Source: a virus
Reading direction: 5' to 3' (one strand)
Length of the DNA stretch: 5,708 nucleotides
IMG/VR virus record: IMGVR_UViG_3300045988_004566
Shown here: positions 634 through 5,708 of the stretch, one piece after another
Layout of the letters: each line of letters opens with the position of its first letter
Numbering within the stretch: position 1 is the first letter of the stretch
Notes under the pieces: model-generated
What the model was told of the DNA's origin: nothing
Databases searched by the model: none
The model's input: the letters and a program-made list of their open reading frames with translations, nothing else
Position numbers and translations under genes: made by a program

Positions 634-808
634 TGTGGAAAAGTTGAAAAGTACTAAAATTTAACACTAAAGCGTAAATAAAAAGCAAAAAACACTGTTG
701 AAAGTTTTGTTGAAAACTTGTTGAATTGTTGAAAGTCCGTCAAAATAACGAAAATCATTGTGCAACATTTTGTGGAAAACCTGTTGAAAGTGTTGAAAGT
801 GTTGAAAA
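634..808 (+). repeat. Iteron-like array: ten same-orientation copies of TGTTGAAAR in three clusters
   Basis: Copies start at 634 (TGTGGAAAA), 642 (AGTTGAAAA), 696, 708, 719 (TGTTGAATT), 727, 771 (TGTGGAAAA), 782, 791 and 800. Bases 782-808 are three head-to-tail 9-mers. The spacers are A-rich. Confidence 0.85.
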
Positions 809-4151: not shown

Positions 4152-4178
4152 AGCCCGGAGAAATCCGGGCTATTTTTT
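4152..4178 (+). terminator. Intrinsic (rho-independent) terminator between VP1 and VP2
   Basis: A perfect 8-bp stem, AGCCCGGA (4152-4159) pairing with TCCGGGCT (4164-4171), closes a GAAA loop. It is followed by A then TTTTTT (4173-4178). Confidence 0.8.
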
Positions 4179-4180
4179 AA

Positions 4181-5050
4181 ATGGCAGCATTATCAGGATT
4201 ATTAACAGCGCTCAACGTAGCCGGAAACATTGCAAGCACAGTTGGAACATTTGCAAACGCTGGTAAACAAATCGCCGGCGCATTCGGCGGATGGGGTCAA
4301 GAAGGCGGAAGCCAAAGCCAAGGCGGAAGCCAAAGCCAAGGCGGCGGACATTCAGAGAGCGGAAGCCAAGCCGGAACAAACATTCAACAGGTAAACGACT
4401 GGCTTAAACAGGCATACGCATACCAAGGGCAAGAAGCCGCCATGCAAGGTAAATACAACAGTCAAAGTATGCTTAAACAGATGGGTTACAACACCTTACA
4501 AGCAATCATGCAAGGCGTATACAACCACATTGAGAACAATGTAGCCATGAACTACAACAGTGCAGAAGCACTAGCAAACCGTGAATGGCAAGAGCACATG
4601 AGCAATACAAGCTATCAACGTGCCGTTGAGGACATGAAAAAAGCAGGGCTCAATCCAATCTTAGCATTCGCAAATGGTGGCGCAAGCACACCGGGTGGAA
4701 GCGCGGGAACAATCAGCGGTGCGAGTATGGGACTGGCGAGCAGCAGCGCACTAGGAGTGAGCAGAAGCGGTGGATTTGTACCAAATGCATACTCAAGTTC
4801 AAGTTGGAGTCAAAGCGATTGGTATAATGCAGCACAAAGCTGGCAGCAAATGCTTAGCGAAACACATATGACACCGTACGGACTGCAAAAGGCACTTACG
4901 GAAGTCGGAGACAACACAAAAGAAGCCATCACAAAGGCAACTGATAAGATGGGAAAAGGAAAAAGCACAGAACAAAGCAGAAGTATGAAACCGCAGGACA
5001 AAACAGGGTCATACGGAGAAAAAAGAAAGCCGGGTGATTATCTTAGATGA
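4181..5050 (+). CDS. VP2: Minor capsid / DNA pilot protein VP2, 289 aa
   Basis: It follows VP1 as in gokushoviruses. The N-terminus is hydrophobic and Gly/Ala-rich, followed by a Gly/Ser/Gln low-complexity tract. The conserved block NTSYQRAVEDMKKAGLNPILAF (about 4601-4681) matches the (S/T)..QR...D(L/M)K.AGLNP.L signature of VP2 proteins. Confidence 0.9.
   Translation: MAALSGLLTALNVAGNIASTVGTFANAGKQIAGAFGGWGQEGGSQSQGGSQSQGGGHSESGSQAGTNIQQVNDWLKQAYAYQGQEAAMQGKYNSQSMLKQMGYNTLQAIMQGVYNHIENNVAMNYNSAEALANREWQEHMSNTSYQRAVEDMKKAGLNPILAFANGGASTPGGSAGTISGASMGLASSSALGVSRSGGFVPNAYSSSSWSQSDWYNAAQSWQQMLSETHMTPYGLQKALTEVGDNTKEAITKATDKMGKGKSTEQSRSMKPQDKTGSYGEKRKPGDYLR
4304..4344 (+). repeat. Tandem 18-nt repeat inside VP2 (GGCGGAAGCCAAAGCCAA, 2.3 copies) encoding GGSQSQ GGSQSQ GG
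   Basis: There are exact copies at 4304-4321 and 4322-4339, followed by a partial GGCGG at 4340-4344. Confidence 0.9.
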
Positions 5051-5708
5051 GTTGTTACAAGCCATTAATAAGGCTGTACAACCCGGAAAATAAAGACATA
5101 AGCGGGCGAGTGTATTCACTTACCCGCTTTTCTGAAATAAGCGGGAAACAGCTCAAGTATGAAGATTTGATGTACAGAAAAGACATCATGTTGATACCGT
5201 GCGGCCAGTGCATCGGATGCAGAATCAGACAAAGAGAGGACTGGACAACACGGATAGAATTAGAAGCGCGAGACTACCCAAGAGAAGAAGTTTGGTTTAT
5301 CACACTTACCTATGATGATGATCACGTACCGGGCATGATAGTAAACACAGGCGAAATCATGCGAAAAGTACAATACGTCTGGAAACCGGGAGAGAAACGC
5401 CCTGAAAGCGTCCAAACATTACTGTATACTGACGTTCAAAAGTTCTTAAAACGTCTTAGAAAGGCTTATAGGGGCAAATTACGCTATTTTGTAGCTGGAG
5501 AATACGGCGAACAGACAGCCAGACCGCATTATCATATGATACTATATGGATGGCAACCAACAGACCTAGAACACCTATACAAAATACAACATAACGGATA
5601 CTACACAAGTAAATGGCTAACAGACCTATGGGGCATGGGTCAAATAGAGATAGCACAAGCAGTGCCAGAAACATATAGATATGTTGCAGGATACGTAACA
5701 AAAAAAAT
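5047..5708 (+). CDS. VP4: Replication initiation protein VP4 (HUH rolling-circle endonuclease), N-terminal 220 codons; open at the window end and continues at base 3
   Basis: The ATG at 5047 overlaps the VP2 stop (ATGA, 5047-5050). My hand translation is MSCYKPLIRLYNPENK...PCGQCIGCRIRQREDW...VWFITLTYDD...ARPHYHMILYGW...KWLTDLWGMGQIE, with no stop through 5708. RCR motif 1 is FITLTY (5296-5313) and the HUH motif is HYH (5527-5535). The M-x-C-x-x-P-L N-terminus and the CxxCxxC element are typical of gokushovirus VP4. The ORF track missed it because it has no in-window stop. Confidence 0.93.
   Translation, partial: MSCYKPLIRLYNPENKDISGRVYSLTRFSEISGKQLKYEDLMYRKDIMLIPCGQCIGCRIRQREDWTTRIELEARDYPREEVWFITLTYDDDHVPGMIVNTGEIMRKVQYVWKPGEKRPESVQTLLYTDVQKFLKRLRKAYRGKLRYFVAGEYGEQTARPHYHMILYGWQPTDLEHLYKIQHNGYYTSKWLTDLWGMGQIEIAQAVPETYRYVAGYVTKK
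5100..5133 (+). promoter_or_regulatory. Terminator-like hairpin inside the 5' end of rep
   Basis: AAGCGGG (5100-5106) pairs with CCCGCTT (5123-5129). An inner 4-bp stem pairs 5109-5112 with 5117-5120 around a TATT loop. The hairpin runs into TTTTCT. The 3' arm can instead pair with a second AAGCGGG at 5139-5145. Confidence 0.5.
5624..5708. repeat. Wrap-around copy of 1-85
   Basis: Identical to bases 1-85. Confidence 0.95.

Follow-up and report, generated by a model that had tools for sequence, protein, structure and literature searches.

Genome setting of the locus

The window, that is, the whole 5,708-nt stretch of viral DNA that was analysed, closes into a circle of 5623 nt through an 85-nt terminal redundancy at its ends. 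The genome is that of a circular gokushovirus, in which the + strand carries all the genes, and its nearest GenBank records are gokushoviruses from human, pig and monkey gut at ~83-85% identity. VP4 was recognised by its HUH motifs FITLTY, HYH and YVAGYVTKK. Between this gene and that of the endolysin lies the sole large non-coding block of the genome (444-953), which had been claimed in an earlier note on this DNA together with GC-rich flanks of the array; both were found as described, the flanks at 551-596 and ~808-820. The features of the locus are the following.

5047 to 443 across the junction, + strand: VP4, HUH rolling-circle initiator (phrog_942)
457-499, - strand: conserved hairpin, candidate VP4 rolling-circle origin, just after the VP4 stop codon and separate from the array
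551-595, no strand assigned: GC-rich (CGCGCAC)n quasi-palindrome of alternating pyrimidine/purine, which bounds the AT-rich segment
596-614, + strand: AT-rich unwinding-element-like segment ATATAATATTAACTTGTTG, with A/T at 16 of 19 bases (84%)
615-629, + strand: DnaA-trios TAG GAG TAG TAG TAA of the 3'-GAT-5' type, five consecutive NAN triplets in a single register
630-633, + strand: 4-nt spacer from the last trio to the first box, GCAA here and GGAG in most relatives
634-650, + strand: co-oriented tandem DnaA-box pair, TGTGGAAAA (634-642) and AGTTGAAAA (642-650), offset by 8 nt
696-735, + strand: second cluster, four DnaA-box-like 9-mers starting at 696, 708, 719 and 727
759-767, - strand: degenerate inverted box TTGTGCAACA (reverse complement TGTTGCACA), which precedes the third cluster
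771-808, + strand: third cluster, four DnaA-box-like 9-mers starting at 771, 782, 791 and 800, the last three head to tail
900-928, + strand: sigma-70-type promoter TTGACG-17-TGgTACAAT with an extended -10, which drives the gene block
954-1343, + strand: peptidase M15 endolysin
1345-1467: 40-aa ORF
3' of the endolysin, + strand: small ORFs, VP5, VP3, VP1 and VP2, in this order

The promoter at 900-928 is located inside the non-coding region of the array and outside the origin module, and equivalent promoters (TTGACA / TGnTATAAT) are carried by the relatives. VP5 matches a PHROG family annotated as 'DNA binding protein', and no PHROG family match was obtained for the products of the 40-aa and 74-aa ORFs.

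The array of 9-mers

When up to one mismatch was allowed, TGTTGAAAR was detected at starts 634, 642, 696, 708, 727, 771, 782, 791 and 800, always on the + strand and with six of the nine copies exact, and a tenth copy with 2 mismatches (TGTTGAATT) was located at 719. Outside the array, the genome contains one single match at the same threshold (4381, - strand). The start-to-start distances within the clusters are 8; 12, 11 and 8; and 11, 9 and 9, and three perfect 9-mers placed head to tail were identified by TRF at 782-807. Ten co-oriented copies within 634-808, arranged in three clusters with 8-12 nt spacing and including three perfect head-to-tail repeats, were thus confirmed as first described, one of the ten being weaker than the rest. 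Copies 634 and 642 overlap by one base as a consequence of their 8-nt offset, and the pair reads TGTGGAAA|AGTTGAAAA.

Against the nine matches in a 175-nt span, none of 2000 dinucleotide-preserving shuffles of the genome reached more than 3. Shuffling of the 597-811 region alone, 20000 times, yielded a mean of 1.04 copies and a maximum of 6.

Sequence identity of the repeat

Base weights were pooled from the ten boxes of 128 genomes (~1270 instances), giving T.90 G.99 T.99 (T.82/G.17) G.96 A.99 (A.90/T.09) (A.88/T.11) N. Position 4 is exclusively T or G, the latter being the canonical DnaA-box base, and the A at position 7 varies to the canonical T only. The canonical DnaA box, TGTGGATAA, is the complement of TTATCCACA, and in 51 of the 128 relatives it is found in perfect form at box 708, which reads TGTTGAAAA in another 57. 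In the window, copies 634 and 771 read TGTGGAAAA, an exact fit to the relaxed consensus TGTGNAWAA that differs from TGTGGATAA at one position.

Similar motifs have been described as DnaA boxes elsewhere. DoriC gives TTTTCAACA as a species-specific DnaA-box motif (Chlamydophila pneumoniae; Lawsonia), TT(T/A)TCAACA has been proposed as a DnaA-box motif in the Mollicutes literature, and the basal unwinding system (BUS) of E. faecalis, validated in vitro, has the T-variant proximal box TGTTGATTC. Judged against these motifs, the TGTTGAAAR 9-mer is a DnaA-box variant, a point not made in the earlier note, and host DnaA would presumably recognise it.

The region 5' of the boxes

According to work on B. 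subtilis incC and Clostridia oriC2 (Richardson 2016/2019; Pelliciari 2021, PMC8287927; Pelliciari 2023, PMC10721633), a BUS consists of a DnaA box that departs from TTATCCACA, or from the motif of the species, at no more than 2 positions, optionally followed by a second tandem box with up to 4 mismatches, and of a spacer of at most 16 bp beyond which lie at least three 3'-NAN-5' trios, with 3'-GAT-5' preferred near the box, and then an AT-rich region; the gap to the proximal box is typically ~4 bp, and that to the distal box 12-13 bp. The decisive context, which the earlier note had left out, was found just outside 634-808, where the trios (615-629) and the AT-rich segment (596-614) precede the array. 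From 5' to 3', the + strand reads ATATAATATTAACTTGTTG, TAG GAG TAG TAG TAA, GCAA and the box pair. The proximal box at 634-642 has 1 mismatch, and the second box at 642-650 has 3 and is offset by 8 nt. The five trios end 4 nt before the proximal box and 12 nt before the distal one; they lie on the strand that reads TGTGGATAA, on the 5' side of the boxes. In the relatives, the proximal box differs from the E. coli motif at 1-3 positions and from the DoriC variant TGTTGAAAA at 0-2. The element departs from the chromosomal examples in its location, between VP4 and the peptidase M15 gene of a 5623-nt phage circle and not beside dnaA/dnaN; therefore, it is considered to be of the BUS type, and not a chromosomal oriC.

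The AT-rich segment extends for 19 nt only before the GC-rich block, and about half of it is TAACTTGTTG (605-614), a near-invariant, phage-specific motif without chromosomal counterpart; bacterial oriCs have AT-rich DNA at the matching place, without TTGTTG. The GC-rich block at 551-595 is present in all the relatives with variable sequence, and its fold is stable, yet no better than that of shuffled sequence (z = -0.14). It may act as a clamp on unwinding. As single-stranded DNA, the 597-695 region is less structured than 200 of 200 shuffles (z = +2.04), which fits a site of DnaA-filament formation and unwinding that melts easily.

Conservation among relatives

Relatives were gathered with a 22-nt anchor derived from the array, which recovered at least 119 microvirus-sized IMG/VR contigs, and with a BUS pattern, which added 72 microvirus-sized contigs from other subclades; 128 distinct regions from relatives were aligned. 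The array is kept in 48 GenBank gokushoviruses and in at least 190 IMG/VR microvirus contigs, and in MT135268, KT264790, MG945136 and MG945381, among others, 597-892 is the only segment found by megablast.

Across the 128 regions, the 9-mers and 597-650 are at least 90% conserved, whereas the sequences of the spacers vary. The start-to-start spacings of the boxes are essentially invariant (8, 54, 12, 11, 8, 44/45, 11, 9, 9), the one length polymorphism being 44 nt in 53 relatives versus 45 nt in 73. The 8-nt offset of the box pair is found in 126 of the 128 relatives, the 4-nt trio-box spacer in 124, and TTGTTG followed by TAG nnn TAG TAG TAG in 125. The three box-proximal trios are near-invariant, almost always TAG TAG TAG, with TAA or CAG as the only alternatives, and of the 115 relatives that could be parsed, 112 show an uninterrupted run of 3 or 5 NAN trios, while TAG/TAA trios number 4 or 5 in 111. 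Other subclades have a variant third cluster (+137, +145, +157, +166), and the phage BUS comes in two subtypes, TGTTGAAA|TGTTGAATA versus WGTGGAAA|AGTTGAAAA. The sequence TTGTGCAAC at the inverted box is also conserved, but in a region that includes the search anchor with which relatives were gathered. In contrast, neither array nor module is present in the classical gokushoviruses Chp2, phiMH2K and SpV4, which encode both VP4 and VP5.

The comparison of relatives that the earlier note had proposed was run, and the 9-mer, its orientation and its phasing are all kept; as the array is conserved, the absence from relatives that would have spoken against it does not apply. The suggestion that selection maintains the array also holds, as positions and spacings are invariant in at least 190 genomes and the spacers are variable.

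Comparison with bacterial chromosomal origins

A search pattern, TAGTARNNNNTGTTGAWWWGTKGAWAA, was designed from the phage and from known BUS sequences. It matches at least 120 GTDB genomes, when ~1 match would be expected by chance in 596 Gb, and the matching loci have AT-rich DNA and longer trio runs upstream. Nearly all of these matches fall between dnaA and dnaN. Signature motifs of DnaA (GKTHL, RDHTTV) were located 150-1400 nt downstream on the opposite strand in 96 of the 120 listed loci, and most of the remaining listed loci, without DnaA motifs, end at the locus edge. Pfam searches revealed the order dnaA, BUS, dnaN, recF in one of these loci (L131), and dnaN plus recF beside the element in another (L226). 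Therefore, from the DnaA motifs and this gene order, the pattern marks chromosomal oriC. The search demonstrates that phage and bacteria share an architecture; it does not demonstrate common descent.

The exact pair of the phage, TGTTGAAAAGTTGAAAA, is also present in the oriC of L131 (uncultured Firmicutes), L226 (uncultured Clostridia) and L246 (Lachnospiraceae), and TGTTGAAATGTTGAAAA was found in several Oscillospiraceae and in one Ruminococcus MAG. In the oriC of L226, a Clostridia MAG, co-oriented TGTTGAAAR boxes are located at +10, +18, +73, +84, +93, +124, +133, +144 and +155, compared to +10, +18, +72, +84, +95, +103, +147, +158, +167 and +176 in the phage. A reverse box lies at +58 in L226, and the degenerate reverse box of the phage near +137; in L226 and in a further locus, L186, a forward cluster is preceded by a reverse box, as in the phage. 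By box positions, the layout of L226 is nearly superimposable on the phage array, and this likeness is not attributable to an assembly chimera, because the similarity is limited to the boxes.

The geometry is also that of origins from model bacteria. Boxes 7 and 6 of B. subtilis (TGTGGATT|TGTGGATAA) have the same 8-nt offset as the phage pair, and the whole arrangement …TAGTAG GGCC TGTGGATT TGTGGATAA (oligonucleotide oTR603; DRE sequence) is geometrically equal to that of the phage, as are the BUS of S. aureus, Listeria, E. faecalis and D. radiodurans. The trios of C. difficile read TAGTAGTAATAGTAGTAG. Spacers of 4 nt like that of the phage are found in chromosomal BUS, with GGCC in B. subtilis and GGGC in many Clostridia. 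Phage and bacterial elements have in common the box class, the co-oriented tandem pair with 8-nt offset and the 4-nt spacer. In both, a run of three or more TAG/TAA trios precedes the boxes on the strand that carries them, additional box clusters lie further upstream, and the DNA past the trios is rich in A and T, which in the phage makes up a short, putative unwinding segment. In contrast to the bacterial BUS, the phage element is carried by a 5.6-kb single-stranded DNA phage without flanking dnaA/dnaN, its ten boxes are all co-oriented and packed at 8-12 nt, its AT-rich part is restricted to 19 nt that include the phage-specific TAACTTGTTG and is bounded by a GC-rich alternating block, and the same genome also has a rolling-circle initiator and a candidate hairpin origin. 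At the level of sequence, this conserved BUS-type architecture is indistinguishable from the chromosomal oriC unwinding modules of Clostridia-like bacteria.

The hairpin origin candidate and strand polarity

The hairpin at 457-499 has, on the - strand, the loop TTACTTGATAGG and the 3' flank CTAGGTGACACC. Folded as single-stranded DNA it reaches -16.2 kcal/mol (z = -7.3), and compensatory changes were found in its stems across relatives. The combination of hairpin, ACTTGAT and TAGGTGAC(ACC) recurs in many other microviruses, including Chp2, and SpV4 has a related form.

The origins of phiX174 and G4 comprise a 30-nt origin within gene A (CAACTTG^ATATTAATAAC...), a PriA assembly site and, in G4, a primase site. 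The loop of the hairpin contains ACTTGATA, which agrees at 8 of 10 positions with the phiX174 origin decamer, CAACTTGATA; this phiX-like decamer, TTACTTGATA (8/10), is thus present here, although outside the array and on the non-coding strand. The array itself lacks the phiX174-type (+) origin sequence (CAACTTG^ATATTAATAAC...), the adjacent TAACTTGTTG matching 7/10, and phiX174 and G4 have no counterpart of the array. The initial view that the array does not resemble a phiX174-type origin is therefore sustained, since it contains no nick sequence and a better match is found in the hairpin on the - strand. The motif TAACTTGTTG (605-614) was also considered as a VP4 nick site, given that it has AACTTG in common with phiX, and this idea was dropped because the element conserved across gokushoviruses is the hairpin motif ACTTGAT...TAGGTGAC.

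In 11 microvirus genomes without BUS, Chp2 among them, the hairpin motif is on the coding strand, whereas 79 genomes of the BUS clade carry it on the non-coding strand and their trios on the coding strand. If the hairpin contains the VP4 nick site, its position on the non-coding strand would imply that the antisense strand is the one packaged in this clade. The BUS clade also has an extremely A-rich and T-poor coding strand, with 36.5% A, 18.3% T and an AT skew of +0.33 ± 0.03, compared to about -0.2 to +0.2 in the hairpin-bearing relatives without BUS; this skew alone is not decisive, because that of phiMH2K is +0.29. The inverted hairpin origin hints at antisense packaging in this clade, and makes the polarity of the packaged strand directly testable.

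A further-reaching proposal, which we regard as tentative and would not bet on at even odds, combines two origins and inverted polarity with the initiation machinery of Clostridia (DnaA, DnaD, DnaB, DnaI) starting the phage. If true, virions would pack the antisense strand, making these phages negative-sense microviruses, and the incoming strand would show the complement of the trios, a sequence of DnaD-recognition type. The replicative form would in turn bear a complete DnaA unwinding module of host type, and the phage would possibly be kept in a carrier state like that of an oriC plasmid. All this would concern an abundant clade of gut gokushoviruses and the Clostridia, a group in which microviruses are almost unknown.

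Interpretation of the array

The array is best explained, with a probability of around 75%, as supplying the DnaA boxes of an element, carried by the phage, that copies or mimics the BUS of the host oriC, and whose function would be the DnaA-dependent opening of the replicative form. We infer DnaA binding, unwinding, helicase loading and a biological role along the following lines, all of them on the double-stranded replicative form. Host DnaA-ATP would fill the ten co-oriented, helically phased boxes (634-808), and the pair at 634-650 would nucleate a DnaA oligomer that grows 5'-ward onto the TAG trios of the coding strand (615-629). The duplex would be stretched and opened into the AT-rich 596-614 segment, with the GC-rich 551-595 block limiting the opening. 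The complementary strand opened in this way, CTACTACTCCTAC, would offer TnnT repeats in a sequence of DnaD-recognition type, on account of which host helicase and primase could be loaded. The outcome would be a host-initiator-dependent opening and replication of the replicative form, beside the VP4 hairpin origin at 457-499. With less certainty, the opening would serve, as first choice, theta-type amplification or the plasmid-like maintenance of the replicative form, and as second choice it would aid the extrusion or nicking of the VP4 origin, ~120 nt away. No plasmid-like copy in an isolate was found in a PLSDB search.

Several points count against a BUS. The AT-rich segment, at 19 nt, is short and holds the phage-specific TAACTTGTTG, and the rolling-circle initiator is intact, so a second origin is not obviously needed. 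Most boxes are 2-3 mismatches off the E. coli consensus. In addition, DnaA is not needed for the replication of phiX174 and G4, the models of the family.

A multicopy replicative form with ten boxes per copy would take up much DnaA, and it is conceivable, though we consider it unlikely, that the array serves as a DnaA sink or regulator without origin function, titrating host DnaA in the style of datA or of the B. subtilis DnaA-box clusters. In variants of this explanation the array would block host initiation, couple the promoter at 900-928 to DnaA-ATP, or act as a tether to membrane-bound DnaA, as proposed for the T5 injection-stop region. With ten boxes in 175 nt the array belongs in the class of DnaA-box clusters (datA, DBC, T5 iss; at least three boxes less than 100 bp apart), it lies ~90 nt upstream of the main promoter, and the 8 precisely placed DnaA boxes of T5-like phages are thought to be unrelated to replication. 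However, a sink needs boxes only, and would leave over the trios, the 4-nt spacer, the orientation of the pair and the unstructured AT-rich segment, which are requirements of chromosomal unwinding.

The likeness to iteron-type origins or operators noted at the outset, with VP4, the 40-aa or 74-aa products or a host protein as candidate binders, was upheld in part. An origin-like set of protein-binding sites, with a host protein as candidate binder, is retained in the BUS explanation, whereas iterons or an operator for a phage protein (VP4, VP5, or the 40-aa or 74-aa product) now seem very improbable, even though the repeats are direct and phased, occupy the sole large non-coding region and coexist with a VP5 of the 'DNA binding protein' family. 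More than 100 bacteria without these phage proteins have the same 9-mer, with trios, spacer and pair, in the interval from dnaA to dnaN, and Chp2, phiMH2K and SpV4 have VP4 and VP5 without the array. Moreover, iteron-type origins are built of 17-22-bp iterons and an element-encoded Rep, whereas the unit here is of 9 nt and the sole initiator is VP4, an HUH rolling-circle protein and not an iteron-type Rep; the 40-aa (1345-1467) and 74-aa ORFs match no PHROG family.

An operator for another host factor, such as Spo0A, would link the phage to sporulation. The development of phi29 is tied to sporulation in this way, TGTTGAA and the 0A box TGTCGAA differ at a single base, and Clostridia are the likely hosts. 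Nevertheless, C makes up ~0% (it rounds to 0.00) of position 4 in the ~1270 box instances, where the only alternative to T is G, and the trios and the oriC look-alikes would stay unexplained. The 0A-box reading was rejected because of this lack of C at position 4, and we give operators of this kind barely any credence.

Least credible is a structured ssDNA or RNA element or a small gene (complementary-strand origin, non-coding RNA, or the 65-aa minus-strand ORF at 654-851), since, even if microviruses need a complementary-strand origin and small ORFs run across the region, its folding is close to or weaker than that of shuffles (z = -0.24 for 690-811, z = +2.04 for 597-695), its conservation is on the 9-mers and not on paired columns, and TGA/TAG stops in all three + frames, together with the 44/45-nt indel (53 vs 73 relatives) that would shift the frame, indicate that it is not coding. 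No matches to the region were obtained in Rfam (E-value up to 1) or in a tRNA scan. A DnaA-dependent ABC-primosome site, which needs a DnaA box in a hairpin, is also unlikely, given the lack of structure in the region. By eye only, GCGCGATATAATATTAAC was weighed as a possible dif site.

Precedents and implications

Full-text literature searches retrieved no paper joining Microviridae or gokushoviruses with DnaA or DnaA boxes and none placing DnaA-trios on a phage genome, in agreement with the earlier statement that no equivalent has been described in Microviridae. The element reads as a chromosomal-type BUS on a rolling-circle, single-stranded DNA phage. Its nearest precedent is found in T5-like phages (bioRxiv 10.1101/866236), whose injection-stop region is likewise non-coding and contains an array of ~8 DnaA boxes in precise arrangement, among them the TTATCAACA variant; this region is kept across relatives, and its likeness to oriC has been pointed out. 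The T5 boxes differ in forming inverted-repeat pairs 3 bp apart, without described DnaA-trios, and in their proposed role in DNA injection, not replication, in a dsDNA phage of Enterobacteria. In the plasmid and phage theta origins of P1 oriR, pSC101, F and RK2, which have DnaA boxes, host DnaA is recruited and helps to open an AT-rich region, in dependence on an element-encoded, iteron-binding Rep to which DnaA is auxiliary. In contrast, the phage element has no iterons and no such Rep, and shows the complete geometry of a chromosomal BUS.

phiX174 and G4 are the textbook examples of replicons independent of DnaA. With the BUS clade, there would be single-stranded DNA phages that recruit the master initiator of the host cell. 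Origin mimicry would also allow host prediction by sequence alone, and points in this case to Clostridia with oriC boxes of the TGTTGAAAR type; few hosts of gut gokushoviruses have been identified, and there is hardly any record of microviruses infecting Gram-positive bacteria (PMC9239249). An oriC-like origin would provide a concrete, testable explanation of how gokushovirus DNA could persist in the gut like a plasmid. The hundreds of natural variants of a compact, 215-nt BUS of fixed geometry make up a comparative dataset for research on replication origins.

In a separate observation, a contig of a large double-stranded DNA phage from the same metagenome (L311) was also found to carry the same T-variant BUS, so that origin mimicry may be more widespread.

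Strand polarity of the candidate origin hairpin

The candidate origin of VP4, the HUH rolling-circle initiator of the phage, was found immediately downstream of its own gene:

457-499, - strand: hairpin 3' of the VP4 stop; on the non-coding strand, loop TTACTTGATAGG, flank CTAGGTGACACC

Sequence comparison identified its motif as the conserved hairpin motif of gokushoviruses, identical at 8 of 10 positions to the phiX origin decamer. Within the clade (the gokushovirus relatives sharing the putative basal unwinding system, BUS), 79 genomes have the motif on the non-coding strand, and 11 other microviruses, one of them Chlamydia phage 2 (Chp2), have it on the coding strand. This orientation suggests that nicking and packaging in the clade act on the antisense strand.

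Base composition was compared across the window and loci L011-L342. In the clade, the coding strand showed an extreme excess of A (36.5%) and shortage of T (18.3%), with an AT skew of +0.33, compared to values of about -0.2 to +0.2 in hairpin-bearing microviruses without the BUS. This skew fits a T-rich complementary strand as the single-stranded one, but is not decisive for polarity because phiMH2K also reaches +0.29.

In Chp2 (locus L250), the intergenic region was organised as follows:

L250 2812-3009: intergenic region with two TGTGCAAAA copies, 12 nt apart

Both copies agree with TGTGNAWAA and are followed by a run of xxCAAAAA repeats. The same region holds a hairpin, CTAGCGTATAACAG-TCTACTTGAT-CTGTTATACGCTAG, followed by GTGA, and no DnaA-trios were detected in it.

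Segments flanking the trios and boxes

Two further elements lie on the 5' side of the DnaA-trios:

551-595: (CGCGCAC)n quasi-palindrome, two tracts of ~20 nt with strict pyrimidine/purine alternation
605-614: TAACTTGTTG, directly 5' of the trios

The TAACTTGTTG element was near-invariant across all relatives and was found neither in the bacterial oriCs nor in the BUS of dsDNA phage compared, and it is a phage-specific site within the presumed unwound zone. The tracts at 551-595 recur in all relatives, with differing sequence, and might be prone to Z-DNA, serve as a GC clamp or form a hairpin in single-stranded DNA; their fold was no more stable than that of shuffled sequence.

The spacers between the box clusters (651-695 and 736-757) were constant in length but not in sequence, with start-to-start distances across them of 54 and 44/45 nt. 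Spacer 1 contains subclade-specific dyads, such as ACGCTAAAGCGT in the window and GTACTTTTTCTTTACGTAGCTACGAAGAAAAAGTAC in pig relatives, and spacer 2 of some relatives contains TGCACAAA-N4-TTTGTGCA.

BUS-type sequences in large viral contigs

A BUS with T-variant boxes (T at position 4) was also present in a large dsDNA phage:

L311:2296-2470: T-variant BUS in IMGVR_UViG_3300045988_157119 (140.5 kb)

The order is TAG TAG TAG GTCG TGTTGAAA AGTTGAAAA, with several TTTTCAACA boxes coming next, and the contig encodes an RNA ligase and a topoisomerase II large subunit. This BUS is of the same T-variant type as that of the window, in an unrelated phage of the same metagenome. Around 17 further large viral contigs matched the BUS pattern. 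Alongside L311, locus L331 is a further candidate for this BUS type.

Expression signals and genome form

Three features lie outside the BUS:

within 900-953: extended -10 promoter, TTGACG-17-TGgTACAAT
4152-4171: GC-rich hairpin followed by a T-run, directly 3' of the VP1 stop
4302-4344: perfect 18-nt tandem repeat, 2.4 copies of AAGGCGGAAGCCAAAGCC, inside VP2

Most genes are preceded by strong AGGAGG-type ribosome-binding sites, and the lysin is a peptidase M15. The expression signals look like those of Firmicutes, not Bacteroidetes, in agreement with the Clostridia-like origin. The hairpin and T-run at 4152-4171 resemble an intrinsic terminator within the gene block.

Positions 1-85 are repeated at 5624-5708, and this terminal redundancy of 85 nt shows that the genome is a circle of 5623 nt, the junction of which lies within VP4. 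The tandem repeat at 4302-4344 codes for a GGSQSQ-type repeat.
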